Below, one piece after another: positions 1-20,813 of a stretch of 64,000 nt of DNA. The DNA lies in the IMG/VR virus record IMGVR_UViG_3300024324_000009, positions 32,001 to 96,000 of that record, one strand, 5' to 3'. The notes under the pieces were generated by a model. It worked only from the letters and a program-made list of their open reading frames with translations. It searched no databases and had not been told where the DNA came from. Within the stretch, counting starts at the first letter, position 1; each line of letters opens with the position of its first letter. The DNA comes from a virus. A program made the translations under genes and the position numbers.

Positions 1-1722
1 ACTCCTGAAGGCGGCTACGAAGGCGATATGTCGCCTTTGCCTCCTCGTCCTTTACAATTTAATGCAGATAATGAATCTGTTTGGAGAAACTATCTTGCAA
101 GTGGAATAGGCGGCATTAAAGTATACAATGAATACAAGAACGAATTTTTACATTCTGCTTTTGAAAATGTGTTTTTTAGTCCAGATTCAGAGAATTGGCC
201 TCCTGTTGACCTAAACAAAACAGATGCACATCTGATTTTTGATGACAGTTTGTTTAATACTACAAATATACTTAATTCAGGAATAGCGACTACAGGAACA
301 GAAACATTTTTTCCAGACGATAGAATGTGCTTAATAACTGGTACTGACATGATGTTTCCTGCCGATCCAGATAAATGGTCTGTGGGCAGAGGAATAAATT
401 TTAATGGTGGACATGTATTGCCTTACATGACTAACCTAAGTCGGTATCAGTATAATATGCAAAGGTTCGGAGTCTGTGAAGAGTGCCCCGAAACAAACGG
501 CATAGATAGATGGAGTGGGTCAGGTGTAAATTCTGGGCAGGCTTGGACTATTAGTACATGGGTCTACTTTGAGAACGAAGACGATATCATTCATTTATAT
601 TCTAGATTTTTTGATGATGACATTAATATTTCTGGAGGTATAGATTATATTAGAGGTATGGACAGAAACCAATACTTATTTAATCTTGGTGACGATCCAC
701 CCGGAGACCCAATTTTTCCAGACGCATACTATCTCTCTTGCGAAAATCCACCTGACCCCAATGGTGTTTCACCTGATCCTGCTTATTGGGACTGCAATGA
801 TTATTATACTGCTACAGGAGGAATACCTTTACTGAATAGAGAGAATAATTATGGAGAATGGCAGTTTGCATTGTATGCTACTCGTTCAGGCATCAGACTG
901 TCTACAATAGGTGCTGCTACTAATTTATATTATTATAGGTTTCAGCAAGACCCGCTACCCGGAACTGACATAAGTAACGAGTTCCCTCCTAATGACCCTA
1001 CTAGTTTTCAAAACCTAGACAGTGTTCCTTATACACAGCAGTTTCAAGGAAGCATGGAGAATCCTATAGGATACAGAGAATGGTTCTTTAGTGGAGAAAT
1101 ACCAGTTAAACAATGGTGTCACATAGAAATCAACAAATCATCAGACAGGACAGTAAGAGTTTTTGCTTCTGGTTATCCTGCAAGTGGACACCAAGTAGTA
1201 GCAGGTTCTCATGTAACCAACTGGTACAGAGGTCTTATGCAAGATATGTGTGGAGAAACTTTAACAGGGCCAACTCCTGATCTTTACAGATTTAATGCTT
1301 CTGGATTTAACTTTAACTACTACAATGCTCCCGAAGATAGGGTTCAGCCTTTTCCTTGGATAGATGTAGGCCCAATATTTAATGCTATATATCCAATAGA
1401 AGGAAATACTGCAATGATCGGCTACCCTAACCCTATGATAGAAGTACCAGTTAGAGTTGGAGGTGGATATTCACAAATAGCAGATTATGTGTATGTAACT
1501 GGGGAAGCTATTCATCTTTCTCAGTACCCATTACCTTCTGTACAAGTTCCTTTGCCTAAAGACTTTTATATGAGTACAGCAAACCCACTTACAGGCATTA
1601 ACAATTTAGAATGTTCCTATGACAACTATTACTTATTTCAAGACCCTGTATCTAATGATCAATGGAGTAGCGGTCTAATTGTATCAAATTCTGGTTTCAG
1701 ATTCGGAGTAAAAAAACTATGA
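1..1722 (+). CDS. Putative virion protein with LamG/concanavalin-A-like segments (probably 5'-truncated)
   Basis: The frame is open from base 1 into the ATG at 28. WTISTWVYF and WCHIEINKSSDRTVRVFASG resemble LamG-like strands. First gene of the structural arm. Confidence 0.5.
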   Translation, partial: TPEGGYEGDMSPLPPRPLQFNADNESVWRNYLASGIGGIKVYNEYKNEFLHSAFENVFFSPDSENWPPVDLNKTDAHLIFDDSLFNTTNILNSGIATTGTETFFPDDRMCLITGTDMMFPADPDKWSVGRGINFNGGHVLPYMTNLSRYQYNMQRFGVCEECPETNGIDRWSGSGVNSGQAWTISTWVYFENEDDIIHLYSRFFDDDINISGGIDYIRGMDRNQYLFNLGDDPPGDPIFPDAYYLSCENPPDPNGVSPDPAYWDCNDYYTATGGIPLLNRENNYGEWQFALYATRSGIRLSTIGAATNLYYYRFQQDPLPGTDISNEFPPNDPTSFQNLDSVPYTQQFQGSMENPIGYREWFFSGEIPVKQWCHIEINKSSDRTVRVFASGYPASGHQVVAGSHVTNWYRGLMQDMCGETLTGPTPDLYRFNASGFNFNYYNAPEDRVQPFPWIDVGPIFNAIYPIEGNTAMIGYPNPMIEVPVRVGGGYSQIADYVYVTGEAIHLSQYPLPSVQVPLPKDFYMSTANPLTGINNLECSYDNYYLFQDPVSNDQWSSGLIVSNSGFRFGVKKL

Positions 1723-4289
1723 GTATTTCACAGACCATAAATGTAGCAAATTTAGGACAAGTAGTAACTAACGCAGGAGGAATCACATTTGCTGTAGCAA
1801 CTCCTACTGGTACACTAGGTGCTATATCAACTCTTAATGTTGATGGCTTAAGCGTTAATACTGGCCTTAGATCAGTGCTTGTTAATGTTCCTTGTTCTGC
1901 TTATCAAGGTTCTTTAAATAGTGCAAGTTTTAGCTTTCGCACATTCAGGTCTTCTATTTATTTAAGTGCAGAGGGTAGGCCTCCTTTTGCTTTTGTAAAT
2001 ACTGAAGATCAACTTTTTAATTTGCAGTCACTTGCTCTCGAAAACGGCCTTAGAGTTGATGACTATGTTATATTCAATGCTGATGATCCCTTGTCTGATT
2101 ATAAGATAGGAGATGCCGCACTTTTTATCGGGCCTATTGCCGAACCTCCTGCTGAGAATGCTTGGGTTAGATATCCCGGTGGTATAACTAGTGCTCCTAT
2201 AAACCCATCTACCCCTGTTGCTTCAACCGGAGTTAAAGTAGATGGTAAACTGGTTACTAATGACACGGCCCTTCCTAATAACGCAGGGGCTTGGAACATT
2301 ATGCCGAAAACTGAAAGTAGCTACAGCTACGACATATCAGCTAATGGCTTTATTAATATAGATGTTACAGATGTTGTTAAGGAGATAACAGATCAGCCTC
2401 TTTGGGAAAAGAATAATCAACTATCTATAATTTTTGAACCAGAAGGCAATGATGGGGACTACCTATTTGACATGGGTGTAAGTTCAAGTCAGTTTACATT
2501 TACGACAGACCACAACCCCGTCCCACCATTTAAACCACAAGATATTCAGATTCAATCAGAATATCGAGCATTGGCTGTCACTTGGGAGCCTCCACTTGAT
2601 GATGGTGGTTCTCCAGTAATTGGATATGCTTTTGAATATAGGTCAGAATCAGAACAAGAATGGACTTCGACACTTGGGACTAGTGCAGATGAGCGTTACT
2701 ACAATATAGAAGGTCTTACTCCGGGCATATACTACTATGTTAGAATAGCAGCAGCAAACGAGATAGGCTTAGGAGATTGGGCTACTCCCACCACTCCCGA
2801 AAAACCAAACAATAATGCCCCGGTTCCCATTAACTCCTTGGACTTTAATAGTGCTAACCCTATTCGGGTTAGAATTAGAAGAGACTACTCAGCAGCATGG
2901 GACGCAGCAGACCCAGTGTTAGCCATTGGAGAGCCGGGGTATGTTTTAGATACTAACTTTATGAAAGTAGGAGACGGTCTTAGTAGCTGGACAGGATTAG
3001 GCTATGTCCAAGTCCCAGATAGTACTATTAATTTCCCTCCTCCACCAGATGTGTTTCTAAAAGTAAACGACAATGAGTTCGCTGCTTCTCCTGTAGTAGA
3101 GGTTAATCTTTCAAAAAGTCAACCTTTAACTATCAAAGCTGAAAATGGCATTAAGGCAGAATATAGCAACACCTATAAAACTGTTACTATGTCTTTAGAA
3201 ACTACTTTTAATCCTATACAAAGCGGTACGATTTCGAATCCTGAAGCATTAGGTTCTCAAGGGTCAGTCAGGTACGACAATGAAAGAATATTTATTTGCG
3301 TAGAAGAAAACTTGTGGAAGAGAGTATTACAAGATCAGCCTTGGTTTAATGTCGTTCCAATATCTGTTAGCGATGGTGCTGGGCAATACCCAAGTAATAC
3401 AGTCATATCAGCAGACGGTGCAATAGTACAAGTTCAGTCTAATGGTGATCCCTATCCAGCAAAAGCAGGTACACCTCTTGTTAATGACGGGTTGACTCCT
3501 AGAGGTGGATTTCTTGGAGGCTATATACCAGCAAGTCAAAATTATGACTTCGCTATTCTGTACAATGGTGGTGAATCTAATAGCAATCCTCAATTAGTTT
3601 CAGAAAACCCTATCGCAGTCACAGTCAACGGAGTGGTTATCAAGTCTTCTAAATATTCTGGAGACATAGACATTTTTTCTCCTCCAAATAACTTTGAATA
3701 TGACATGCCGTTTTGGACAAATTATTTTGGTATAGACGGTTGTAACGGTTTAGTATTAGATGATCTAGTTTATGTCTATTATGGAGGACGCTTCGTTAAT
3801 CAGTGTTGGAACACCAATAAGTTTTATGAGTCTAATGAGTATTTTAATGACACAAACTTTGCTGGAGACTATATTAGACATAATGATGGTCACTCAAAAA
3901 TCGTAGGAATAGCATTTGATGGCTATCCTATATATGGACCGTTCGGCTATTCTGACCCACTTAATACCAATTCTAATGTAAGACGCATAGCTTCTTCTTA
4001 CAGGAAACTTGCTACAGATGCTCATAGACCTAACGGATTTAAGTATAATAATTCTTATGTTATAGAAGATGTTACATATACTTTAATAGCCGGTGCGTTT
4101 GTGCAAGACTATCAGTTCGATACCACGTTTGGCGATTTGGATGAATATAATGGCCGATATTGCAAGACTCCAGAATACCCGAATGGCACTTATGCATACT
4201 TTTTGACGTTCTCTGACGACGAATTGCTTTATCCTGCATATCCTTATATAATTGGTACTAGCACTAGGGAGCAGCGTAGTGTATTATAG
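1719..4289 (+). CDS. Multidomain virion/fibre protein: FN3 + Mtd_N-like + YHYH-like domains
   Basis: FN3 (VTWEPPLDDGGSPVIGY...YYVRIAAANEIGLGDW); Mtd_N/hyaluronidase-N-like (RIRRDYSAAW...PVLAIGEPGY..DT..MKVGDG); YHYH-family C-terminus (GHSKIVGIAFDGYPIYGPFGY, DLDEYNGR..TPEYPNGTYAYF). ATGA overlap with the upstream stop. Confidence 0.7.
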   Translation: MSISQTINVANLGQVVTNAGGITFAVATPTGTLGAISTLNVDGLSVNTGLRSVLVNVPCSAYQGSLNSASFSFRTFRSSIYLSAEGRPPFAFVNTEDQLFNLQSLALENGLRVDDYVIFNADDPLSDYKIGDAALFIGPIAEPPAENAWVRYPGGITSAPINPSTPVASTGVKVDGKLVTNDTALPNNAGAWNIMPKTESSYSYDISANGFINIDVTDVVKEITDQPLWEKNNQLSIIFEPEGNDGDYLFDMGVSSSQFTFTTDHNPVPPFKPQDIQIQSEYRALAVTWEPPLDDGGSPVIGYAFEYRSESEQEWTSTLGTSADERYYNIEGLTPGIYYYVRIAAANEIGLGDWATPTTPEKPNNNAPVPINSLDFNSANPIRVRIRRDYSAAWDAADPVLAIGEPGYVLDTNFMKVGDGLSSWTGLGYVQVPDSTINFPPPPDVFLKVNDNEFAASPVVEVNLSKSQPLTIKAENGIKAEYSNTYKTVTMSLETTFNPIQSGTISNPEALGSQGSVRYDNERIFICVEENLWKRVLQDQPWFNVVPISVSDGAGQYPSNTVISADGAIVQVQSNGDPYPAKAGTPLVNDGLTPRGGFLGGYIPASQNYDFAILYNGGESNSNPQLVSENPIAVTVNGVVIKSSKYSGDIDIFSPPNNFEYDMPFWTNYFGIDGCNGLVLDDLVYVYYGGRFVNQCWNTNKFYESNEYFNDTNFAGDYIRHNDGHSKIVGIAFDGYPIYGPFGYSDPLNTNSNVRRIASSYRKLATDAHRPNGFKYNNSYVIEDVTYTLIAGAFVQDYQFDTTFGDLDEYNGRYCKTPEYPNGTYAYFLTFSDDELLYPAYPYIIGTSTREQRSVL

Positions 4290-7956: not shown

Positions 7957-8985
7957 GTGGATGAAGAAAGAAGAAAAACATCTCTAGTACACAGACTCTT
8001 ATCAGGCACTCTTATATTCCGCGAGGAAGATAGGATTTTGGAGTTAATATCTCCAAGCCTCGATGTCAAGCTATTATCAGATGTGGTTTATGAAGAACAC
8101 TACCAAGACAATATTTATGATTTTATTCTAAAAGAAGATGTGAGACCTCTGTTGTTAAAGGCCGAACTTATTGGACATTTTTATGACAAAGATTTGGAAA
8201 GAATAATTAAGAAAATCGAAAAAATAAAAATACAACTTTTTTTAAATTATTGGGACAGAACTAAAACTAAAAGAAACAGAGCGGCATTGAAACATGCTAA
8301 AAAGTCACAGATTGATCTGATGACAAAAGGAATGTCCTTCGATCATTTAACCTTAGAACATTTTTGCAATATGGAAGCAGTTAAATATCAAATATCTAGA
8401 ACTTTAAGAGACCACGAAACAAAACAACCTGTACTTACTCCAGACTCTAACAAAATAGATTACGAGAAGTATTTACATATAATAAATCAGCACACACTAG
8501 AACTAAACACTATTAGAAAAGTCGCTAGAAGCGAATATTGGAAAGGATACTTTCTATCAAATGAACACAACGTATTTGGCAAGAGTGTAGGAGACCTTAA
8601 TCCTGAACAACTTTCTCTGTTAACTACTACAAGAATGTATACTAGGATCGCAGAACATACAGATGCACCGAATGAGACTATATTAAATGATGATGATGCT
8701 TTAGATGGTTGGGTCTTACATCAAACTGAAAAAGCCTTAGAAGAAAAGAAAAAGGGAGATAAAAAAGATAGTAAGATAGGTAACGCTCAAGAAGTTTTTT
8801 ATATGGCAGAAAACCAAGAACAAAGAGAAGATATTTTAGCACTTAATACACAGGCATCAGAACAGATACAGAAGAACAGAATGAACCAAGTAATGAATAC
8901 GACAGAAGCAATAGACTCAGCAGATTTTCAGGACGTAAGACAAGAACTGAATGAAGCAGTCGCAAATAAACAGAAGAGGGTATGA
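7957..8985 (+). CDS. Hypothetical protein, possible tail assembly chaperone
   Basis: GTG start with AAGGA RBS; helical and charged; lies between the tube and TMP genes. Confidence 0.4.
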   Translation: MDEERRKTSLVHRLLSGTLIFREEDRILELISPSLDVKLLSDVVYEEHYQDNIYDFILKEDVRPLLLKAELIGHFYDKDLERIIKKIEKIKIQLFLNYWDRTKTKRNRAALKHAKKSQIDLMTKGMSFDHLTLEHFCNMEAVKYQISRTLRDHETKQPVLTPDSNKIDYEKYLHIINQHTLELNTIRKVARSEYWKGYFLSNEHNVFGKSVGDLNPEQLSLLTTTRMYTRIAEHTDAPNETILNDDDALDGWVLHQTEKALEEKKKGDKKDSKIGNAQEVFYMAENQEQREDILALNTQASEQIQKNRMNQVMNTTEAIDSADFQDVRQELNEAVANKQKRV

Positions 8986-9293
8986 TTATGTCTAATGAAG
9001 ATGTGGAACAACTGATTAGAAAAAGAATACAAACAACTATGATTGGAGCATTAGCAAGATTTGAAGAAAACTTTGGACATTTATGGGGGCATTACAAAGA
9101 CCCTAGCGAACCATTGACTTCAGAAGAAGAAAAGTTTGCAGACACTTGGGACTATACCAGAAATCAAATTCTTAACCAAGGAAATAGTCAGATAAGAAAC
9201 TTATCTAAGGACTTGCAAAATGCCATAAGCGGCAACAGCAATCAAACTCGTTATCAATATAATTTCGGAAAACCTAGAGAGAAAAGAGGATAA
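8982..9293 (+). CDS. Hypothetical protein
   Basis: 103 aa, ATGA-coupled to the upstream gene. Confidence 0.6.
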   Translation: MIMSNEDVEQLIRKRIQTTMIGALARFEENFGHLWGHYKDPSEPLTSEEEKFADTWDYTRNQILNQGNSQIRNLSKDLQNAISGNSNQTRYQYNFGKPREKRG

Positions 9294-9294
9294 T

Positions 9295-10191
9295 ATGAAT
9301 ACTTATGATTTTAAAGCAACTGTAGATGGAAAAGAATGTGAGTTTACCGTTATGAGTCCATCTAACTTCCATTATACTGAAGCACAGAAAGTGTATAATC
9401 ATGCTTTTAGTGATGCGGTTAAGTCTAATGCCATCGTTAGAGCAAAAATGGAAGATGTTCTTCGGGATCAGGGACTATGGGATGACAAGAAAGAATCTGA
9501 GTATACTCAGATTGTACAAGAAATAGCTAATGGTGAAAGACTTTTGAAAAAGGGTGGAATTAAGCTATCTGAGGCTAAAAATTTGGCTATGGAGATGGCA
9601 GATAAACGGTCAAAGCTACGTGAATTGATCTCTGTTAGGACAAGTTTAGACAACCAGAGTGCTGAAGGTCAAGCCGATAACTCTAAATTTAATTATCTAG
9701 TATCAGCTTGTGTGGTGTATAAAAGTAATAATCAGCCCTATTTCAAGTCTCTTGAAGAATATCTAAGTAGTAATGCTTCAGAAGTCTCTAATACAGGTGC
9801 TAAACTTTTGGCTAATATGTTATATGGACTTGAAGACGACTTTGAGAAGAAACTACCAGAAAACAGGTTTCTTAAAAAGTATAATTTTGTAAACGATGAT
9901 TTACAGTTGGTAAACAAAGAAGGTCATATTGTTGATAGAGAAGGCAGACTTATTGATAAGTTTGGCAGATATGTTAATGAGAAGGGCGACTATGTTGATA
10001 GACAAGGGAATTTGATTGATGATGACGGGGATTATATTGTCGATGAGCATCCTTTCTTAGATGATGATGGCGAACCCATTCTAGAAGAAAAGACACAAGA
10101 AACCCCAACAGAAGAACAGCAGGATGAAGAGAAAACCAAACCTGTCGCAAAAAAACCTCGTCAGAAAAAAGCTACTGCTGAAGCAGAGTAG
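9295..10191 (+). CDS. Putative tail assembly chaperone with C-terminal 7-aa repeats
   Basis: GAGGA RBS; immediately upstream of the TMP; carries [DN]xxGxx[IV] repeats. Confidence 0.45.
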   Translation: MNTYDFKATVDGKECEFTVMSPSNFHYTEAQKVYNHAFSDAVKSNAIVRAKMEDVLRDQGLWDDKKESEYTQIVQEIANGERLLKKGGIKLSEAKNLAMEMADKRSKLRELISVRTSLDNQSAEGQADNSKFNYLVSACVVYKSNNQPYFKSLEEYLSSNASEVSNTGAKLLANMLYGLEDDFEKKLPENRFLKKYNFVNDDLQLVNKEGHIVDREGRLIDKFGRYVNEKGDYVDRQGNLIDDDGDYIVDEHPFLDDDGEPILEEKTQETPTEEQQDEEKTKPVAKKPRQKKATAEAE

Positions 10192-10235: not shown

Positions 10236-13200
10236 ATGGCATCATTTGATATAACCGCACAAATAAACCTAAGAGGCCCAAGCAATGTTAAGCAAATTGC
10301 TGCGGATATTCGTAGGCAATTATCAAATATTAAGTCTACGGTTAATCTTAAACTTGATCCTAAGACTGTTCAAAATGTTGCGATTGTTAATAAAAACTTT
10401 AGGGCCTTGAATGCTACTTTAGCAGCAAGCAAAGGAAATATTAATGCTGTAAGCACAGCGTTCAATAATCTAAACAAATCAATGGCGAGTTTGTCAACAA
10501 GTAGTAAGAATGCTGCTAATAGTGTTAAGTCTGTTGCAACAGCTGCTAAAACTGCCACGGCTGCTACCCAATCCCTACAAAAGGGTGCTCAAAGTGCAGG
10601 TACTGCTGCCAGTAACTTAGGAGCAGAAGTTGCTTCCGGTGCAAGAAAGTTTCTAGTATTCAGTGGAGTCTCTACACTTATTAATGCTGTAACTTCAAGC
10701 ATTGCTCAGGGAGTCGGTGCTTTTGTTGAATATGAACGAGAACTTGCCAAGGTTCAGCAAGTTACAAACGCTACATCAGGAGGTTTATCCAAACTTTCTA
10801 AAGATATACAAGAAGCTGCTGTGAGCACAGGAGCAGCAGCCACTGAACTAGCTAAAGTCTCTGTGGTCTTATCACAGGCAGGCTTATCTGCTAGAGAAAC
10901 AAGTGAAGCCTTGCAGACTCTAGCAAAGACTACTTTGGCTCCTACGTTTGGAGACATTACTGATACTACAGAAGGTGCAATCGCTATTTTGCGTCAGTTT
11001 AAATTAGAGACCTCTGAATTAGAAACAGCACTAGGAAGTATCAATGCTGTTGCAGGTGCATTTGCTGTTAGTGCTTCAGACATCATCACAGCTGTAAAAC
11101 AGGCAGGTGCTGTTTTTGCAAGTTCTAGTCAAGGAGTTAGCGAGGGTACAGACGCACTCAATGAGTTTATTGCTGTCTTTACTAGTGTTAGACAGACCAC
11201 GAGAGAAAGTGCAGAGACTATCGGTACTGGTCTTAAAACCATTGTTACCAGACTACAGAGACTAGATACTATTCAATCTCTTAAACAATTTGGGATTCAG
11301 TTAACAGACCTAGAAGGTAAGTTTGTTGGTCCTTTTGAAGCCATTAAAAGACTGAGTGAAGGACTACAGGCTTTTGATCCAAGAGATGTTAGATTTGGTG
11401 CTATCATTGAAGAACTTGGTGGTTTTCGTCAGGTAGGTAAGGTTATCCCTCTTATTCAGCAATTTGCTGTTGCTCAGGAAGCATTAAACGTAGCCAGAGA
11501 AGGTGGAACCTCCATTACTGATCAACAGATTATAGCAGAACGTACATTGTCTGTTCAATTACAAAAAACTGCTGCTAACTTTCAAGCATTTATAACAGGA
11601 GTTGCAGAAAGCGATGCTTTTCAAGGTATTACTAAAGGACTGCTTGGTTTTGTTAATGCTTTAATAAGTTTAGCAGACATACTTAAAGATGTTATACCAG
11701 TACTTGCTGCTCTTGCAGCTAATGCCGCTATACCTGCAATAGCACAGTTTGCAGGTGGCTTTGGAGCAAAACTATTAGGTAAAAACAAAGGAGGAGCAGT
11801 TCCTCATCATTTTGCTAGAGGAGGCTATGTTCCGGGTTCTGGAGATCGAGATACTGTACCAGCAATGTTGACTCCGGGCGAGTTTGTTATACGCAAGAAA
11901 GCAGTACAAGCTATTGGAACCGATAAACTCTCAGCAATGAATGGAGGCCAAGGTGCAGCTATTGCTACACAGGCTAAAAATAAGGGTGGCATGATTCAAC
12001 ACTTTGCTGAAGGAGGAACAGTAAGCGTTGACTATGCTAAGAAAAAACCTAGTGCATCAAAAGAAAGAGAACTTATAGGAAACAACCTTGTTCAATCTGT
12101 TAACTCTCTAGCTAGTTACTATGACCCAGAATCAAAACAATTATCCAGTAGGAAAAGTCCTAAAAATCTGCCTAATTATGCTGGTATAGTAGGAGGAATA
12201 TTTGAGTCAGCAGTTGAACTTGTAGCAGGACAATCAGACAAACAAAAAAACGAAGCTGTTTGGGATTACCCATCAGGGATCGGAAGTACTGATTTGTTTA
12301 ATAATGTTCCGGGCCTAGGTGTTCCTACAGACGCTAAAAAAAGTGCTACGACCGCAACAGTTAGAAAGAAGCTAAAAGCACACTACAGAAACGCACAAGG
12401 TACTGATCTCAATCGTAAAAAATTTGGTATTGTTGCATTCGGCAAAGGCGAAGACTACGAGTATCAATTTGATCCTGAAGCAATCAAACAAGAAGTGGCT
12501 CCACAAAGAGCCGCAAAAGCACAAAAAGCAAATCGTGGTGGTTTGATTCAACATTTCCAAGATGGAGACCTTGTTGTTGCTGGATCAGGTAGAGTCACAC
12601 AAAAAGATATTAAGGAAGCAACTTCTGGACAATTAAATAGTGCTCTACAAAACCCTAAAGTCAATGCAAAAAGTCGTGCCGCTATTCAAAACGAACTCCA
12701 ACAAAGAGAAACAGCAAACAATGCGACTAACGTAGCTGTTGTTGGTATCTTACCGTTGGGGTATTCAAAAGATTATCCTCCACAGCCTCTTGGTGGAGAG
12801 AACGTAAAAATATCTTCTAGGGGACTACCTAAAGCTAAAGAAGAGGCTTTTCTTAATATAGCAGAAGGTCTTAGAGGAGTTGTACAGACTGCTGCTGTAG
12901 AGATTGGAGGTTCAGCAAAGCCACTTACTCCTGAACAAGAAAAATCAACTGGATTAGAAAATGTGCAAGGAACTATTTTTGAAGCAGTTCTTTCAGCATT
13001 AGGAGCAACTGGAGGATCAATACAAAATCAATCTATGGATTACGCTAATGGACTTGGACCTGCTGCTTCCTTATATCCGGGCATTGGTCCAGATTGGCCT
13101 ACGGAAGTCAAACGTGATGTTACTGGTCCCGGTTTCACTAGAAGTAAAAAGAATATTGCTAATTTCTATAGTGCACAAAAGTTTGCTGAAGGAGGAAAAG

Positions 13201-16200
13201 TTAAATCTAAAGGTGGGCTCGGAATTAAAACTACCGGAGGTAATACGATTACTTCTGTGTTTGAGGATGGACAAAGTAGTTCTGGTGAAGTTGTAGCAAA
13301 AAGTATAGGCCAGAATTTATTTGCAGTTCTGTCATCTCAAGTGTCTGGTGGTGGAGGCAGGGCCTTATATGATTCTGCTATGAAACAAGCAACGAGTCAG
13401 GGAGGTAGTTTAACTTCAGACAGAAGCAGAGTTAGTAGTTCTGCTTTAAGTAGAATTTGGACTACTTATTTTAATAAAGGAACAAGTAAAGACGGGAAGA
13501 AAGTTTCCAAGAAGCCTGTACCAGACAACATGCTTTATACTGGTGCATTTTTTGATGAGTCTGATTATCCAAGCCCTAATCCTGCATCTTGGCAAGGTCA
13601 AGCTGTACCTTTGCAATACGCTTATAAACAATTTGCTGATGGTGGAGCAGCATCAGGAGGGGATACAGTTCCCGCCATGCTAACTCCCGGTGAATTTGTT
13701 ATTAATAAAAAAGCAGCTAAATCTATAGGTTTGTCTAAGCTAAGAGAAATGAACTATGCAGATAAAATAAGAGGTTACGCTAAAGGAGGTCCAGTAGGAG
13801 GAGTCCAATATTTTGATAATGGAGATACAGTTGATCCTCTTTCTCAATCTGGAGGTGTCAACCCCTGCTGTCCAGACGAACTTAAAGCAGCTAATACTAA
13901 TGCTAAAACAGCTAAAAAAATGGAAGATGCTGCCGATTCAATGAACGAAGCAGGAGAGAAACAAGAAGAAGCAGCAGATGAAATGTCAACAGGCCAAGCA
14001 ATATTCTTGGCATTTATTGGCCCAGCGATTGAACAAGGCATCAAGAAAGCGTTCCCTAATAGTCGTGTCGCCGCAGCAACTGGAGAAGGTATTCAACAAG
14101 GTGCAGCTACTTATCAAACAAGTAGTGCTTTGCTTGGAACGATAGGTAAGGTATTGGGTAAATTTCCGGGAGTCGTCGGAAAAGCAGGAAAATTAATTAC
14201 CGCAAGTGCTAAAGGTATTGCTGTCGTGTTGGGAGCATTATCTTTTGGTATAGGAGCCAGATCAGGATACATCCAAAAAAGCATTGAACTTTTATCACAA
14301 GAGATTGAAACTGGAGCAAAAGACACAGCAAAAGCAATAAAGAATTTTAATGATTTACTATTAGACCCAAATATTAGCACAGAAACACTTGGTAAAAGCC
14401 TTGGTGAGTTATCTAACAAAATTAATGATTTAAATACAGTCAGAGGTGAAAAAGCCGCAGTAGAGATTCAGCAGTTACAACCTTATCTTCCATATTTCGA
14501 AAGTAATGACGACAAACAATTTAGACAAGCTAGCGAAAGAAATATTGAACGAGAAGCGTTTGAAACTGGTGCTCAAGATGCTCTTACAAGCCTTGAGGCT
14601 GCATTACAAAACGGTAAAAAACTTGGCGACATTTTTGATAATATGTCAAAGAAAGAAGCACAAGGTCTCAAAAAAGCGATTGCTTTTCAAGACAAGGCTA
14701 TTAGAGAGCAGATAAAGGCATTAGAGAAACAAAGAGATGCAACAGAAGAAGGAACCCCAGAAAGAGAGGCACTTAATGAACAAATCGCTGTGGCTATTGA
14801 TACCGGATATGTAGAGAATGCACAAAGATTAAAAATTATAGCACAATTAAAAGAAGCAGAAAGAGCAGTAGAAGAAAATAGAAGAAGGTTGGTAAATTCT
14901 TCTACTAGTTTGGAAAAATATGTAGAGGCCTTTGGTACTGCAATAGCAATAGCAGGAAATAACTTTCAAGTGGCATCTTTAGAAGCTAAATCTTTTGCTG
15001 ATGGTTTTGCAGGTGTAGATTTACAGAATTTATTTGCAGCACAAATTACTACTCTAGAAAATCCCAGAGCATTTAATGACGCAGAAAATGCGATCTCTCT
15101 TGATCCGTTAAAAGGAGTACTTGGAGATAATGCAAAAGTCTTTGCCGCATTGGTTCAACTTCCTAATCGTTTAGAAGACGCTATTAATAGTGCTGCTGCC
15201 GGTGCAGCTGGCCAAGATTCCGAAAATGTTGGCAGAGCAATATCTGCTGCTATTAGCGGCAACCTAGGAGAGTTTGAAGGAACTGCACTAGGAGATGCAT
15301 TAGTCGGTTCGCTAACAGAACAGATTGAAAAAGCATCCAAAGGTGGTAAAGGAACAGCAGACACAACGGCTATTATTGATTCTTCCACAGATATTGTAAG
15401 AAAAACATCTGAAAACTTTACTAAAGCTGCTGTAGAAGCACTCAAACTTATCCGAGAAGCAGGTGTCCAAGTAGCAAGTTTTGCACAAGTAGCAGAAACA
15501 TCTTTTAAGAAATTTAATAGAGGGTTACTGTTAGCTGCTCAAGGAACAACACGTTTAAACCAAGACATTGACAGATTAGTAAGTGGAAGAAACGACCCTA
15601 GAAGTATTAGCGACATAAATGCAAGAACTACAGGGGCTGCTAGAAGTGAAGTGTCTGGAGTTGCACAATTCATACAACAGAATGCTGATGCTCAAAAACA
15701 ACTCATAGACTTACAAAGTAGGTCGTTGCAAGCACAAATGGAAGGAGCCCAATCATTTAATCAGAATGTCACAGAGATAGGGAGGGTCAAAGCAGAGATT
15801 ATCGGATTAAGACAACAAACTGAAAATCTTAGAACGGCCCTAACTGATAAACTCGGAGAATTAAAGAATGAACTTAGCAATAGACTTAGTGAACTTAAAG
15901 AACAATCAGCAGCATCTAGAAGTTTAATAGACAGCGTATTTTCAGATGAGCAAGGTGCGAATGAGAGTTTTGATGCGGCAATGAGATTGGCAAATGGAGA
16001 CGCATCAGGAATCAGCAGTGGGCCAGAAGCACTAAAGGTGTTGAAAGAGATTTCAAGACTACAGCAAGCAGGTCTGATTCCTGATGATCCTAAAGTTATA
16101 GAAAACGCATACAAAAGGGCTGCTAAAGCAGCAGGTATTCAGTTCTCTCCAGAAGGACTAAAGGTATTTAAACAAGCCTTCGCTAATCCAGAGGATGACA

Positions 16201-19200
16201 GTGAAGTTAAAGCATATGTTAAAGAACTACGGGCAACAAATGCTGAAATCAATCAATTAACTAATGTATTGAATTTGCAAGAACTTCAAAATTCTAATGA
16301 TGCATTAATTGCAAGTCAAACAGCTTTAACAAAAGTTATGTCTGATCTTCCAGAGACTATAAATACTATAGCAGAAAAAATACAAGCATCTGGTTTAAAA
16401 GCCCCTATAGAAGTTTTAGAAGCTGGCAATATCAAAGTAAGTAAAGCTGACAGAGTGGACATCAGAGATACTTTAGGTGCTTCCCAAGCCCTTCCTACTA
16501 CAAAGGCTGTAGGAGGAATAATATATCGTTCAACAGGAGGAGAGGGGCCTGCCTCTTCAGTGTCCACTGGTCCCGGTTCTAATATTAATTGGGCTCCCAG
16601 AGGCTCAGACACTGTACCAGCAATGCTTACTCCCGGCGAATATGTTGTAAACGCACAGGCTACCAAAGCCAATAGGGGTTTATTAGAAAATATAAATAGT
16701 GGTAAAGGCAAAAAAGTTCAGCCGATATATAGGGCATCTGGTGGCCCAACCGACACAAGTGAGAGGGGCTGGATAGACTACTTTGACGAGCAAACGCAAT
16801 CGGGTAGAGGATTCCTTGAATCAATTTATTCCTTCGGAGGCGTAACAAAAGTATGGCCCGATATAGCTACAAAACTCGGTGGTTTAGGAGACACTTTGGG
16901 CAGTTGGTACGGAAGTGCAAAGGATACGGTCAATTCAGGGTTGGCTTCTCAGTTTACTAAATTTGGAAACTATAAAGGTCAGATATTACCAAAATATATT
17001 ATAGAGGCTATCAAGACTGGTACTATTACCGAAACTAAGGGATTAGCATCAGTTCCTAAGAAAGCATGGTCAAATTTAATACCTCGCATTATTAATAATG
17101 TTGGCAACACAAAACTTGCACAAGACCTAACCAAATGGGGCGGTTCCAAGTGGGCAAAAGCTAGTCCAACGCTAAACACCGCAGTGCAAGCAGAGAAGTA
17201 TGCAGACGACATAGCACCTAGTGTGTTTAAAAAAACCTTCCCAAAAATAATGAAAAGTCAGTTTGCAAAGGGGACGTTTAAGAACTTACCTATAGCAGAG
17301 TGGGCAGTAAGCGGTTTATTAGCTAGCAGAAACCGTTGGAGTGAATTGGAGAGAAAAGGTGGAAGTACGAATCAAATGGTCATGTCTAGCCTTGCTGAAT
17401 TTTTAGCAGGAGGCACTGCTGGTGCACCTACGGATTCGTCGGGCTATTCTGGTATTGCTAGTGCTGGAATTGATAATGCAAGTAGACTATTTAGTAATAT
17501 TTATGCTGGTTTTCAAAGAGGAGGACCGCAGGGTGCGGTTGCAGCAGGTTTGGTAACTGTTGGGGCAATGGGTATAAGATTGGCTGAAGAAACTAGAGGT
17601 TGGAGACTCGATGCCATTCAAGAAATGGGTTCATTCCAAGACTTGAGAGCTAATGAAAAAGCAGGAGCAAAAAGTGCAAAGCAACAGGAAAGAGACAGAA
17701 TAAAAGACTTTAAAGAAGCTGGCGTTAAGGACTTGGAGTACTTAGATTCTCAAATAGATATTCTGGGGTTGACACAATTCAAAAGAGCACAAAGATACGG
17801 CGGGTTTCAGGCAGATAAAGATTTTTACGGTTCAGATAATAATCCATATCTTGATATGGATATTGACACAGAAGCCGTTAAATCTAGAGAATATAATGAA
17901 TGGGTTCAACAATATTGGAACGGCAAAGTTAACTCCTCTGCATTCATGAGCAACAAAGGTGAGATGAGATTGATAGAATTTGATCCAGCACTCATACCAG
18001 AGATACAAAAAGCTAGTTTCAGAAGTGGGAACGTATTCGAGAATAGGTATTCAGACGATACGATACAGAAGGCTTATAACAAAGTTGCTTCTCAAGAAAA
18101 CAAAAAAAAGACAGTAGAATTAAAGAGTCTCGGCGGCAAGGCTGTGGGAGTATATCCCAATGCAGAAGCATACGATGGTTCCTACCCTAAATCATTGGAT
18201 TCATTAACTCAGAGTATTGATGACAGAAGTGAAAGTATTTATCAAAACACTCAAGGAGTGAAACAACCTGATGGCACTAGGGACGAAACTCAAACTGGTT
18301 TTAACAACATTTACAGTAAAGACACTGTGTTAAGAGACATAGATGATGAACTTGCTACAAAGATGTTAGCTTCTAATACATTTTTTAATAGAATACCAAG
18401 AGACTTAACTACAAATGACAAGCAGGCATTCGAAGATAGCAAAAGGTATACACAAGATGTTACTGAGATAGCTAAAAGATATACCGCTAGAGAAGAAGAG
18501 TTGAAGCAGATAGCAAGAGAGGAAAGAGACGCACAAGCAAAAGCAGAAGCAGATAGAGCCAAGGAGAAGGTAGATGCAAATGCTGCTACTCAAACTAAAA
18601 TTAGTAATATATCGGCATTTGCAACTAGTGGCAAAGAAGGTCTGAAAGATTTAGGATATAAAGAATTTTATCCTTACATAGATAAGAGTAGTGAGATTAA
18701 TAAACTTCAGGCAGATAGTATTAAGATGCGTGGGAAACTTAACGCACAGGCAGCAGGTCCAACACTTAATCTTGGTCAATATGTAGATTTCGAATATGGT
18801 AAATTAGGGAAAGATGCAAACACTCTTTTAAAGAGTCAAGAAGCTATACAGATACCAACAGATGTTGCGGCAGCTGTTGCAGAGTACAGAAAGAACTACG
18901 TACAAAGCAGTCCTTTATATGAAAAGGGAATCAAAAGATTTGCTGACTCTATAACTGAATGGGAGTTTAATCAAGAAGAGCCAAATATAGCTGCTGCAAT
19001 CAGAAGAAGCATTTTTACTGGACAGCAAATCAATCCCGGTGTTATAGCGTCATTGACAGCAAATAATGAAGCATCTGATCCCGACTTAGCTGTACAAATG
19101 GGATACGATGGCGACATAGACACCGCTGTCCAGCAGTTTACTAAAGATAGAGAACAAGCAGAGGTAGGCAAAGTTAGACCTGTAGGCGGGACAGTTTACG

Positions 19201-20813
19201 AACAAGACAAAGTAGGAGCAGAGGCATACTTAGCTAAATTAAAAGATGCAAAAAACGCTGTGAAAAATAGGAACTACGAGGCCCAACTCGCCAAGCTAGA
19301 CCCTGACCAAAGAATGGAGTCTACGTTAGTACAGCTACTTGCTGAAGAAACACCTATACTTAATGGATACTTAAAAGGTATTAATTTTTATAGAGATGGT
19401 AATGTAGACAAACTGGGAGGAGGCGAACCACCTAATGCAGGATGGACTCAAGGTTTTGCAGACATGGCTGGGGCTGTTGAGGGACGAAGTGACGTTCTGT
19501 TAAAGGCTGGCCAATCTGAACCACTCAGCGAAGGCAAACTGGATTATGGTAAAACATGGAAGTACTACGCGAGACTAATGAATGATGCTCAAAACCTTAG
19601 TGCCGATGCTACACCTGAACAAATAAAGGCTAGAGAAGGAAACATACAACAAGAGAGAGCAGTAGCAGACGCACAACAAGCAACAAACAATAAAAGATAT
19701 GATGCTGCTGTTAGGTTTGGTAAAGCGTTAGCTGGCACCCGTGTTCCTACAGATTCGCCAGTGGCTTGGGTAAAGTACCGTCAAGCACAACTGGAAAAGT
19801 TTAGAGTAAATGTTGCACAGGCTACAAATACAGAGCCAGACTATCCTGAAGCAAAAGATATTCCTGCTCTTAACGAGTCAGGTGTTACAAAAAACTGGGT
19901 AAATAGCATATTTAATTCAAAAGGTGAAGATTCAGTGGTTTCACAAAGAGGAGCGAAAGAACTCCTAAGATGGAAAGCTAAACAAAAAGGTGAGAATGCA
20001 GAAGCACTCCTTGGTCTTGCTAACGAAATAGACGGCAACGTAGGCTTTAATGATATTTACCCTTTTGATCGAGTAAACGACACAGAATTAGAAGCCGCTA
20101 CAGACCTACAAGGTATTCAAGCTATAACTGGTAGATTCAACAAATTTGTGTTAACCAGAAAAAATCTAGCGTTGCCTCTATTAGAAAGAAATTTAGAAAA
20201 TCTTTACAAAGGAGGCTTATGGACTCCAGAAAGAGGACTAGAAGAGAACTTAGGAGCATTGAATGCCTTAGACCCAAGACTAGACCAATCGGGTATAAGT
20301 AAAAAGATACAAAAATTTGGACCAAAAACTCAATATTATTCAGATGGTGGGTCGGTATTTACGCCCAGAGGTACGGATACAGTTCCTGCTATGTTAACAC
20401 CGGGAGAATACGTTGTTAATAGAAAGGCCGCTGCCCAAAACAGACCTTTATTAGAAGCTATAAACGGAAAACAAAGCAGAGCAAAAAATAGTCCATATTA
20501 CCATGATGGTGGAGATGTAACAGGAAATGGTGTAAATAATGTTGTAGTAGACACACAAGAAATTAGCAAGTTTGTTACCTCGTTTGACAGATTTGCTAAA
20601 GAATTGGCCTCATTAAATGTTCCTGAACAAATTACAATTCAGGGAACACACACTGTTGAAGTTAATGTAAATGGTGGACAAGTTCTTAATGACCTATTAA
20701 ATGGACCAATCGGTGATTTGGTAAGAACAGAAATTGCAAGTGCATTTGAACAACAGAATCAAGACTCAGAAGGAACCATACCTAACCCATTCAATCCAGC
20801 AACAAATCCATAG
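10236..20813 (+). CDS. Tape measure protein (TP901-like core) with inserted cargo domains
   Basis: AGGAG RBS. The N-terminal ~520 aa has TMP hallmarks (YERELAKVQQVT, LSQAGLSA, TTRESAETIGTGLKTIVTRL, LKQFGIQLTD, IIEELGGFRQ). Four DTVPAMLTPGE[FY]V motifs. 3525 aa. Confidence 0.9.
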   Translation: MASFDITAQINLRGPSNVKQIAADIRRQLSNIKSTVNLKLDPKTVQNVAIVNKNFRALNATLAASKGNINAVSTAFNNLNKSMASLSTSSKNAANSVKSVATAAKTATAATQSLQKGAQSAGTAASNLGAEVASGARKFLVFSGVSTLINAVTSSIAQGVGAFVEYERELAKVQQVTNATSGGLSKLSKDIQEAAVSTGAAATELAKVSVVLSQAGLSARETSEALQTLAKTTLAPTFGDITDTTEGAIAILRQFKLETSELETALGSINAVAGAFAVSASDIITAVKQAGAVFASSSQGVSEGTDALNEFIAVFTSVRQTTRESAETIGTGLKTIVTRLQRLDTIQSLKQFGIQLTDLEGKFVGPFEAIKRLSEGLQAFDPRDVRFGAIIEELGGFRQVGKVIPLIQQFAVAQEALNVAREGGTSITDQQIIAERTLSVQLQKTAANFQAFITGVAESDAFQGITKGLLGFVNALISLADILKDVIPVLAALAANAAIPAIAQFAGGFGAKLLGKNKGGAVPHHFARGGYVPGSGDRDTVPAMLTPGEFVIRKKAVQAIGTDKLSAMNGGQGAAIATQAKNKGGMIQHFAEGGTVSVDYAKKKPSASKERELIGNNLVQSVNSLASYYDPESKQLSSRKSPKNLPNYAGIVGGIFESAVELVAGQSDKQKNEAVWDYPSGIGSTDLFNNVPGLGVPTDAKKSATTATVRKKLKAHYRNAQGTDLNRKKFGIVAFGKGEDYEYQFDPEAIKQEVAPQRAAKAQKANRGGLIQHFQDGDLVVAGSGRVTQKDIKEATSGQLNSALQNPKVNAKSRAAIQNELQQRETANNATNVAVVGILPLGYSKDYPPQPLGGENVKISSRGLPKAKEEAFLNIAEGLRGVVQTAAVEIGGSAKPLTPEQEKSTGLENVQGTIFEAVLSALGATGGSIQNQSMDYANGLGPAASLYPGIGPDWPTEVKRDVTGPGFTRSKKNIANFYSAQKFAEGGKVKSKGGLGIKTTGGNTITSVFEDGQSSSGEVVAKSIGQNLFAVLSSQVSGGGGRALYDSAMKQATSQGGSLTSDRSRVSSSALSRIWTTYFNKGTSKDGKKVSKKPVPDNMLYTGAFFDESDYPSPNPASWQGQAVPLQYAYKQFADGGAASGGDTVPAMLTPGEFVINKKAAKSIGLSKLREMNYADKIRGYAKGGPVGGVQYFDNGDTVDPLSQSGGVNPCCPDELKAANTNAKTAKKMEDAADSMNEAGEKQEEAADEMSTGQAIFLAFIGPAIEQGIKKAFPNSRVAAATGEGIQQGAATYQTSSALLGTIGKVLGKFPGVVGKAGKLITASAKGIAVVLGALSFGIGARSGYIQKSIELLSQEIETGAKDTAKAIKNFNDLLLDPNISTETLGKSLGELSNKINDLNTVRGEKAAVEIQQLQPYLPYFESNDDKQFRQASERNIEREAFETGAQDALTSLEAALQNGKKLGDIFDNMSKKEAQGLKKAIAFQDKAIREQIKALEKQRDATEEGTPEREALNEQIAVAIDTGYVENAQRLKIIAQLKEAERAVEENRRRLVNSSTSLEKYVEAFGTAIAIAGNNFQVASLEAKSFADGFAGVDLQNLFAAQITTLENPRAFNDAENAISLDPLKGVLGDNAKVFAALVQLPNRLEDAINSAAAGAAGQDSENVGRAISAAISGNLGEFEGTALGDALVGSLTEQIEKASKGGKGTADTTAIIDSSTDIVRKTSENFTKAAVEALKLIREAGVQVASFAQVAETSFKKFNRGLLLAAQGTTRLNQDIDRLVSGRNDPRSISDINARTTGAARSEVSGVAQFIQQNADAQKQLIDLQSRSLQAQMEGAQSFNQNVTEIGRVKAEIIGLRQQTENLRTALTDKLGELKNELSNRLSELKEQSAASRSLIDSVFSDEQGANESFDAAMRLANGDASGISSGPEALKVLKEISRLQQAGLIPDDPKVIENAYKRAAKAAGIQFSPEGLKVFKQAFANPEDDSEVKAYVKELRATNAEINQLTNVLNLQELQNSNDALIASQTALTKVMSDLPETINTIAEKIQASGLKAPIEVLEAGNIKVSKADRVDIRDTLGASQALPTTKAVGGIIYRSTGGEGPASSVSTGPGSNINWAPRGSDTVPAMLTPGEYVVNAQATKANRGLLENINSGKGKKVQPIYRASGGPTDTSERGWIDYFDEQTQSGRGFLESIYSFGGVTKVWPDIATKLGGLGDTLGSWYGSAKDTVNSGLASQFTKFGNYKGQILPKYIIEAIKTGTITETKGLASVPKKAWSNLIPRIINNVGNTKLAQDLTKWGGSKWAKASPTLNTAVQAEKYADDIAPSVFKKTFPKIMKSQFAKGTFKNLPIAEWAVSGLLASRNRWSELERKGGSTNQMVMSSLAEFLAGGTAGAPTDSSGYSGIASAGIDNASRLFSNIYAGFQRGGPQGAVAAGLVTVGAMGIRLAEETRGWRLDAIQEMGSFQDLRANEKAGAKSAKQQERDRIKDFKEAGVKDLEYLDSQIDILGLTQFKRAQRYGGFQADKDFYGSDNNPYLDMDIDTEAVKSREYNEWVQQYWNGKVNSSAFMSNKGEMRLIEFDPALIPEIQKASFRSGNVFENRYSDDTIQKAYNKVASQENKKKTVELKSLGGKAVGVYPNAEAYDGSYPKSLDSLTQSIDDRSESIYQNTQGVKQPDGTRDETQTGFNNIYSKDTVLRDIDDELATKMLASNTFFNRIPRDLTTNDKQAFEDSKRYTQDVTEIAKRYTAREEELKQIAREERDAQAKAEADRAKEKVDANAATQTKISNISAFATSGKEGLKDLGYKEFYPYIDKSSEINKLQADSIKMRGKLNAQAAGPTLNLGQYVDFEYGKLGKDANTLLKSQEAIQIPTDVAAAVAEYRKNYVQSSPLYEKGIKRFADSITEWEFNQEEPNIAAAIRRSIFTGQQINPGVIASLTANNEASDPDLAVQMGYDGDIDTAVQQFTKDREQAEVGKVRPVGGTVYEQDKVGAEAYLAKLKDAKNAVKNRNYEAQLAKLDPDQRMESTLVQLLAEETPILNGYLKGINFYRDGNVDKLGGGEPPNAGWTQGFADMAGAVEGRSDVLLKAGQSEPLSEGKLDYGKTWKYYARLMNDAQNLSADATPEQIKAREGNIQQERAVADAQQATNNKRYDAAVRFGKALAGTRVPTDSPVAWVKYRQAQLEKFRVNVAQATNTEPDYPEAKDIPALNESGVTKNWVNSIFNSKGEDSVVSQRGAKELLRWKAKQKGENAEALLGLANEIDGNVGFNDIYPFDRVNDTELEAATDLQGIQAITGRFNKFVLTRKNLALPLLERNLENLYKGGLWTPERGLEENLGALNALDPRLDQSGISKKIQKFGPKTQYYSDGGSVFTPRGTDTVPAMLTPGEYVVNRKAAAQNRPLLEAINGKQSRAKNSPYYHDGGDVTGNGVNNVVVDTQEISKFVTSFDRFAKELASLNVPEQITIQGTHTVEVNVNGGQVLNDLLNGPIGDLVRTEIASAFEQQNQDSEGTIPNPFNPATNP
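11811..20520 (+). repeat. Dispersed protein-level repeats in the TMP: DTVPAMLTPGE[FY]V x4 and [FY]xx[GD]G motifs
   Basis: DTVPAM codons start at 11850, 13662, 16608 and 20376. Related motifs FARGG, FAEGG (x2), FQDGD, FADGG, YAKGG, YSDGG and YHDGG lie between domains. Confidence 0.9.

Follow-up and report, generated by a model that had tools for sequence, protein, structure and literature searches.

Tape measure proteins (TMPs) fill the lumen of the phage tail and leave it before the DNA. The locus described here raises the question of whether such a protein can, in addition to measuring the tail, carry enzymes towards the host. The stretch of DNA analysed (hereafter the window; 64,000 nucleotides) comprises bases 32001–96000 of a 171,040-bp IMG/VR virus record, an uncultured phage genome rated complete, and encodes a TMP of unusual design, P0001, in which copies of a repeated module separate enzyme-like domains and long segments of a different character (Table 1). 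Weighing the evidence below, we lean modestly towards a TMP that doubles as a carrier of enzyme domains, and a shade more firmly towards domains that would be delivered and active.

P0001 is a genuine tail TMP of a large phage, of the TP901 type. Its sole Pfam match is PF10145 (73 bits, cut-off 33.2; amino acids (aa) 189–394) and its sole NCBIfam match TIGR01760 (72.2 bits, cut-off 28.8; aa 151–496); all of its PHROG matches are to tape measure families and fall on the first 600 aa or on the repeated module. The core was found in 118 of the 119 proteins compared. Hydropathy, a crude measure, peaks at aa 465–507 and 1317–1346, and the first 600 aa are laid out like a complete ordinary TMP, with a helical core, the hydrophobic stretch at 465–507 and a module.

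The motif DTVPAMLTPGE[FY]V occurs in exactly four copies in P0001, at aa 539, 1143, 2125 and 3381. Their DNA sequences are only 67–79% identical, so the motif is kept by selection on the protein and does not reflect recent duplication. In the module to which it belongs, [FY]AxGG is followed by a beta-hairpin with GE[FY]V at its end, by a helix of the pattern K.A....G...L and by a second [FY]AxGG; over 393 instances the strongly conserved consensus reads ..GG.[IV]YAFA.GG.VFGPGGTDTVPAMLTPGEFVINKSAVQKIG..LL..MN, with the second [FY]AxGG usually after it. The short glycine motif is itself enriched, with 11 matches to [FY]xx[GD]G against 2.8 ± 1.7 expected from 2000 shuffles, and nine matches to the stricter [FY][AQSDH]xGG against 0.5 expected from shuffles. 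AEGG stands at two boundaries, and ARGG, ADGG, AKGG and ASGG at others; four more [FY]xx[GD]G matches lie inside segment E (aa 2198, 2389, 2426 and 3051), away from the recognised boundaries. We infer that P0001 is a chain of four TMP-like units. An initial annotation of this gene had already proposed a TMP with a TP901-like core of about 520 aa, which the family matches bear out, and a segment order of core, A, B, C, D, E and C-terminus with a motif between each, which is correct. Its statement that every boundary carries [FY]xx[GD]G, with or without DTVPAMLTPGE[FY]V, needs two minor amendments: the boundary between A and B has a degenerate FQDGD, not a strict match, and module 3 lacks an upstream [FY]xxGG.

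Segments A, B and C, between modules 1 and 2, are the enzyme-like part of the protein. We modelled aa 520–1210 with AlphaFold2 from 86 aligned sequences, and aa 596–992 in a second model; the predicted local distance difference test score (pLDDT) is 65–85 in segment A and above 90 in segments B and C. On the strength of the model, segment C can confidently be assigned a GNAT fold. GNAT folds fill 49 of the first 50 rows of a VIA-align search against 48,161 PDB representatives (Z 5.4–6.6, 84–123 residues aligned), the anti-CRISPR acetyltransferase AcrVA5 among them; Foldseek matches 3d8p with a probability of 0.98, and GNAT clusters of the ESM Atlas match with a template-modelling (TM) score of 0.57–0.62 by target. 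At the place of GNAT motif A the segment has GGGGRALYDSAM (family consensus GxGxxLYDxxM), which as a pattern is compatible with (Q/R)xxGxG/A, the motif that binds the acetyl-CoA pyrophosphate ahead of helix 3. No Pfam GNAT model matches C.

Segments A and B probably form a divergent, TMP-specific PD-(D/E)xK family. Their mutual similarity is weak (E = 3e-4), and iterated profiles built from them converge, with 77 of 80 hits overlapping. Residues E916, D935, E957, K959 and R960 of B are conserved at 90% or more in 59 aligned divergent sequences, the pattern E...D...(D/E)xK is present in 199 of the 214 hits of the nuclease-like family, and in the second model the signature residues fall on a helix, at a loop or the start of a strand, and within a strand. 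All structural alignments of A longer than 100 residues (they span about 110 residues) are to PD-(D/E)xK nucleases, namely the DinG N-domain, Cas4, lambda exonuclease, LHK-Exo, MGME1, Dna2, RecE, HincII and Hjc, with VIA-align Z of only 3.2–5.6. Foldseek probabilities for the nuclease-like domains reach at most 0.35, and Pfam and NCBIfam, searched at E up to 1, contain no nuclease family that matches A or B. Relatives of the domain are almost confined to giant TMPs; a PTEVKR pattern found none in bacteria among 185,579 species genomes.

Segments D and E, which together make up 60% of P0001, behave like a fast-evolving spacer without enzyme features, and their identity falls to 10–60% among close relatives. 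By composition, again a crude measure, half (50%) of the residues in D are helix-forming, and D can be clearly aligned only in the eight closest relatives, at 20–60% identity. E is likewise present only in the eight closest relatives; Pfam, PDB sequence, profile and ESM Atlas searches returned nothing for it, and no free-standing homologues were found except for two short proteins of 202 and 457 aa.

The architecture is shared by a family of giant TMPs. A word-indexed search gave 168 proteins of 1965–6161 aa sharing the core, and an exhaustive profile-free search with aa 596–1135 added members of up to 7122 aa, for more than 170 in all; a loose module pattern finds two to six copies in nearly all of these metagenomic proteins, typically with one after the core, several internal and one about 150 aa before the end. 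There are 113 related loci on viral contigs, the longest of which measures 230 kb. Seven clear full-length relatives have 3380–3534 aa; P0003 and P0004 match P0001 over the whole length and the rest segment by segment in the same order. Best conserved among the close relatives are the modules, the catalytic part of B (82–85% identical across all of them) and C.

What lies between the modules is partly fixed and partly variable. The nuclease-like domain has at least one copy in 125 of 162 giant members, and its first copy directly follows module 1 in 106 of 122 proteins; a boundary motif comes within 40 aa after the domain in 65% of cases, against a background of 13%, and the 112 segments in this first slot share the consensus G...E...DF...DAK...KFAxGG, followed by the next module. 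About 54 of 176 proteins have the GNAT cassette, which P0006, P0008, P0009 and P0010 lack; where it is shared with P0003 and P0004 it is 90–95% identical, against 50–80% in its flanks. ADP-ribosyltransferase (ART) domains were detected in P0082, P0086 and P0131 (37–39 bits against a Pfam cut-off of 23.4 bits), four further proteins have weaker matches to the ART region of the fragment P0172, and P0017 has a Pfam-grade staphylococcal-nuclease (SNase) domain directly after its first module. A HAD-phosphatase reading of a DxDxT-type insert (DFDETLV...TARPQSN...LIDD in P0029, P0137, P0142 and P0164), seen in the alignment, was set aside because it has no Pfam support; this insert, at about aa 1000–1150, replaces the N-terminal half of segment B and resembles HAD motifs I, II and IV. 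Free-standing "split" cassettes were also considered as a sign of independent units, and rejected because the short hits are fragments. In the related locus L086:4380-9032, gene calling yields three separate entries, a TMP of 958 aa and proteins of 223 aa and 343 aa (the latter an ART and a GNAT piece); a module is encoded across the first gap, which makes this one frameshift-broken giant TMP and not three genes, and short database hits to cassettes are therefore to be treated as fragments.

Against this background the initial annotation fares unevenly. Its cassette architecture is real and family-wide, and the GNAT-like domain it named does model as a GNAT fold by VIA-align, Foldseek and the ESM Atlas. 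For the two nuclease-like domains it proposed, the conserved PD-(D/E)xK-type signature in A and B and the weak but uniform nuclease matches of A are favourable, but B has no clear fold match. Variable cargo between conserved linkers describes the GNAT domain, absent from four close relatives, and the ART and SNase domains of others, but not the nuclease-like domain, which is a fixture (125 of 162). Its helical or hydrophobic segment of about 900 aa (D) and its unknown segment of about 1200 aa (E), 60% of the protein, are spacer-like and have no enzyme features. Modelling of aa 520–1210 with AlphaFold and Foldseek, which it had recommended, yielded a globular GNAT fold for C but no match for B and poorly modelled modules; the collection of homologues that it also called for has conserved modules and varying GNAT, ART and SNase domains, but a constant nuclease-like domain and drifting D and E.

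Table 1. Layout of the tape measure gene P0001 in the window (positions are those of the window).
Feature	Position	Strand	Remarks
Whole TMP gene (P0001)	10236..20813	+	single open reading frame (ORF), 3525 aa, no internal stops; PF10145 and TIGR01760 matches
TP901-type TMP core, aa 1–520	10236..11795	+	PF10145, TIGR01760; hydrophobic stretch at end, aa 465–507
Module 1, aa 517–600	11784..12035	+	HFARGG, then DTVPAMLTPGEFV and a helix, then HFAEGG
Segment A, aa 601–778	12036..12569	+	PD-(D/E)xK-like; E657, D677, D699-x-K701; degenerate FQDGD at end
Segment B, aa 779–990	12570..13205	+	same family as A; E916, D935, E957-x-K959-R960; KFAEGG at end
Segment C, aa 991–1132	13206..13631	+	modelled GNAT fold; GGGGRALYDSAM at about aa 1038; QFADGG at end
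Module 2, aa 1133–1200	13632..13835	+	DTVPA motif at aa 1143
Segment D, aa 1201–2090	13836..16505	+	hydrophobic stretch 1317–1346, then helix-former-rich region
Module 3, aa 2091–2180	16506..16775	+	no [FY]xxGG upstream, RASGG downstream
Segment E, aa 2181–3365	16776..20330	+	uncharacterised, aromatic-rich (8.8%)
Module 4, aa 3366–3430	20331..20525	+	core motif 144 aa from C-terminus
C-terminal tail, aa 3431–3525	20526..20813	+	kept in 33 family members

The module reaches well beyond the giant TMPs. Judged by profile comparison, it is homologous to residues 729–794 of lambda gpH, at the start of the C-terminal piece that is lost on gpH cleavage. A profile of 489 non-redundant module instances scores 26.9 bits against this region, compared with no more than 3.9 bits for any of 1000 shuffled lambda and T5 sequences; gpH holds a single copy, FHFATGG...GEFVFTKEATSRIGVGNLYRLMRGYATGG, in which the elements follow one another as FATGG ... 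GEFVFTKEATSRIG ... YATGG. The Pfam family PF09718 (Tape_meas_lam_C) spans gpH 627–701, outside the module, which leaves the latter without a model in the Pfam copy used. It was found in 215 cultured-phage records, one copy each, and at 362 places in bacterial genomes and metagenome-assembled genomes; it is single in 61 of 76 recovered prophage TMP frames and lies 110–135 aa from the C-terminus in most complete prophage TMPs (about 1300–1550 aa). A single copy near the C-terminus is hence the canonical state, which makes module 4 of P0001 the canonical one and modules 1–3 extra. The module is thus widespread yet lacks a Pfam model in the copy used, and it marks the C-terminal unit of many TMPs.

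This homology bears on whether P0001 is cut. During lambda tail assembly a peptide of about 14 kDa is lost from a Gly-rich stretch close to gpH's C-terminus, leaving gpH* of about 78 kDa, and both the site and the catalyst of this cleavage are unmapped (PMC12617516). T5 pb2 is cut during assembly after R1127, between its hydrophobic stretch and its enzymatic part (PMC10038345), in the sequence FVPR/AEGGMMYPG (the slash marks the cut); AEGG is the same tetrapeptide that stands at two boundaries of P0001. By analogy with the R/AEGG of T5, we predict that gpH is cut before A734 in FHF/ATGG. Computed masses for a cut at F733/A734 are 79.8 and 12.5 kDa, to be compared with the published values of about 78 and 14 kDa, and the prediction is a testable answer to a question, that of site and catalyst, which has stood since the 1970s–80s. 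The module is homologous to the part of gpH that adjoins the cleavage region; the processing envisaged in the initial annotation stays conjectural. If P0001 were cut at the nine boundary motifs, the expected pieces would measure 54, 6.5, 20, 22, 16, 5, 105, 132, 6 and 11 kDa. Reasoning from these analogies, we regard cleavage of P0001 at the motifs as a possibility on the doubtful side.

A bolder version of this idea, which we consider rather improbable, takes the [FY]AxGG / DTVPAMLTPGE[FY]V module as a general, portable TMP processing element that was multiplied here to give a true polyprotein with an effector route through the tail lumen. The element could be self-cleaving, because no protease is known for lambda or was found here; Pfam detected no peptidase family inside P0001 at E up to 1, a search that remote versions could escape. 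Ordinary TMPs would use the module for a single cut of the gpH*/gpHC type. In P0001, assembly or ejection would be followed by release of a channel-forming ruler piece, two nucleases, an acetyltransferase and pieces of about 105 and 132 kDa; relatives would release ADP-ribosyltransferases, and the effectors would be exchangeable and serve host takeover or anti-defence.

The reading towards which we lean, a TMP that also carries enzymes, can be pictured as follows. The whole chain would fill the lumen of a tail of about 0.5 micrometres and, as TMPs are, would be expelled ahead of the DNA. Its hydrophobic stretches would help form a channel across the envelope, as TMPs such as lambda gpH* are known to do (PMC12617516). 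The enzyme domains would then enter the periplasm or cytoplasm before any phage gene expression, where the nuclease-like domains would cut nucleic acid and the GNAT domain would acetylate a host target. The [FY]AxGG elements around modules and enzyme domains may act as hinges, or as processing sites like those of T5 pb2 and probably lambda gpH, in which case cutting would free the domains as separate proteins. The cytoplasmic action and anti-defence role proposed in the initial annotation are likewise conjectural. Should delivery of the enzyme domains take place, the tail lumen would give a large uncultured clade of phages with genomes of 100–230 kb a way to inject nucleases, acetyltransferases and ADP-ribosyltransferases. 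To our knowledge, only one RNA polymerase, that of P23-45, and muralytic domains have so far been found to travel through a tail lumen.

Several observations weigh against this picture of delivery. Pfam recognises none of A, B and C and the fold Z-scores are middling; for B there is no clear fold match, neither VIA-align nor Foldseek against the PDB and BFVD giving a significant one. By our own estimate, folded domains of 16–22 kDa, in three to six copies, would have little room to spare in a tail lumen of about 4 nm. Close cultured relatives are lacking: INPHARED yielded no DNA match, and aa 600–3525 no protein match. The core, too, led no closer than SPbeta-type TMPs, with an identity of about 26%. 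A nuclease-like domain that is a conserved fixture would also fit a structural or DNA-handling role, and the modules have a pLDDT of only 30–60 in the monomer model, being poorly modelled. The module profile finds no match in T5 pb2, so that the T5 parallel, drawn from AEGG and architecture, is suggestive only. A gpK-like JAB or NlpC/P60 protease cutting after GG was considered as the processor, and neither family occurs in the 171-kb genome; a papain-like C1 protease has only a sub-threshold match here and none in three complete relatives, and is therefore not a conserved partner. That match (Peptidase_C1, 14.4 bits) lies in a 312-aa frame at G000:C1:116058-116468 on the minus strand, about 20 kb past the end of the window.

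Modules that are disordered in the monomer model, the failure to find a protease (JAB, NlpC/P60 or a conserved C1) and a nuclease-like domain that is constant in the family rather than variable cargo are also what a ruler, and nothing more, would look like. P0001 would then do no more than set the length of an extremely long tail, the modules being knots for registration, oligomerisation, chaperone binding or tube contact left by repeated fusion of TMP units, and the enzyme-like domains inert fillers, with no cleavage and no effector. In keeping with this, 60% of the length (D and E) evolves fast, as spacers do, and is either helix-rich or featureless, and TMP deletions shorten tails proportionally in TP901-1 (PMC5099701). 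We nevertheless consider a pure ruler unlikely: the residues of catalytic type hardly vary among 59 divergent sequences and lie in the best conserved part, and an E...D...ExK triad would not be preserved in inert fillers; relatives have bona fide ART and SNase domains in the same slots; and the GNAT cassette keeps 90–95% identity between proteins with flanks at 50–60%.

The near-universal presence of the nuclease-like domain and its fixed place right after module 1 (106 of 122 proteins) would also suit a role in handling the phage's own DNA, with the nuclease-fold domains, adjacent to the N-terminal unit, gripping or processing the leading genome end in the tail, or piloting it through the channel, instead of attacking the host, and the GNAT and ART domains as optional extras. 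The leading DNA end does lie in the tail, in space freed as gpH* moves down the tube (PMC12617516), and the enzyme of the P23-45 TMP works on incoming phage DNA (PMC10770324). A mere clamp, however, would have no need of intact catalytic residues, and P0001 holds two tandem copies of the domain, so that we rate this role as distinctly improbable. The trivial explanation of a chimeric assembly, or of several genes read as one, would draw on the metagenomic source and on the related contig L086, with its frameshift-broken TMP split into three genes by callers; but the frame of P0001 is unbroken over 10.6 kb, relatives of 3380–3534 aa from independent samples match it over the whole length or segment by segment in the same order, and more than 170 proteins follow the same grammar. 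With so many matching relatives from independent samples, an artefact is very unlikely, to the point of being hardly credible.

The TMP gene sits in a co-directional run of ORFs of structural size, and PHROG and Pfam gave no usable match for the genes on either side. A sheath gene was searched for and not found, from which a non-contractile tail appears likely; the tail of this phage is probably non-contractile. Directly upstream of the TMP (window 8982–10191) two adjoining ORFs of 103 and 298 aa lie in different frames, a single base separating stop from start. The spot directly upstream of the TMP is commonly taken by tail assembly chaperones with a programmed frameshift. Downstream (window 20734–42085) follow four very large co-directional ORFs of 1561, 593, 1914 and 3030 aa, none of which has a PHROG match. 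The first of these (1561 aa) has a weak match to an ice-binding-type beta-roll (PF21300), and its listed TTG start at 20734, which gives an overlap of 80 nt with the TMP end, may have been placed too far upstream. Elsewhere in the window (1719–4289), an 856-aa protein matches large virion structural and baseplate PHROGs over its C-terminal third, and a short N-proximal piece of it (aa 380–440) is matched by the N-terminal ends of tail fibre and hyaluronidase families.

Among the closest known systems, lambda gpH shares the layout, having a helical ruler, a hydrophobic and Gly-rich stretch, the same module and a short tip-binding tail; it differs from P0001 in its one module instead of four, its lack of enzyme domains where P0001 has three enzyme-like ones, its length of 853 aa and its N-terminal family (PF06791). 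In the tail tip, gpI is bound by the final 32 residues of gpH (PMC12617516), and by analogy the C-terminal tail of P0001 is a probable tail-tip anchor. T5 pb2 resembles P0001 as a TMP with AEGG at the cut, next to a hydrophobic stretch and an enzymatic part, but it is cut only once, and its cargo is reportedly muralytic, with an action in the periplasm.

That a TMP can carry an enzyme is already established. Thermus phage P23-45 has a 5002-aa TMP, gp96, with a fused virion RNA polymerase (PMC10770324), so the concept of a TMP-delivered enzyme is not new. Like P0001, gp96 is a giant TMP; it sets a very long tail and delivers through it an enzyme that acts in the cytoplasm, before phage gene expression. 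Unlike P0001, it has one enzyme, placed N-terminally, and neither a cassette grammar nor family-wide variation of cargo has been described for it. As a possible member of the present family gp96 was rejected, for it has no DTVPA or [FY]AxGG module. A literature search returned no description of the giant-TMP family, nor of a repeated processing-type module with family-wide cassette variation; it is these last two features, neither of them found in the literature searched, that are apparently new.

The cargo itself has close parallels among injected proteins. ART and GNAT domains are known from injected polyvalent proteins and from host takeover, as in T4 Alt and the phiKMV-type acetyltransferase Rac (PMC5512222, PMC7824862), and T4 Alt, an injected ADP-ribosyltransferase, is a comparable conflict-type enzyme. 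The polyvalent proteins of Iyer et al. 2017 (PMC5512222) likewise combine several conflict-type enzyme domains (ART, GNAT and nucleases) in one polypeptide. They enter the cell with the DNA, with proteolytic release proposed, whereas for P0001 delivery is only surmised; they are proposed or shown to be packaged in the head and have a zincin-like peptidase, whereas P0001 would have the TMP as carrier and has no detected peptidase domain. The paper describing them does not mention tape measure proteins (PMC5512222). In architecture, P0001 can be likened to the Sle1-type effectors of actinobacterial contractile injection systems (PMC13277306), which are the cargo of non-phage injection particles and which, loaded inside a tail-like tube, likewise combine a TMP-related modular scaffold with exchangeable domains.

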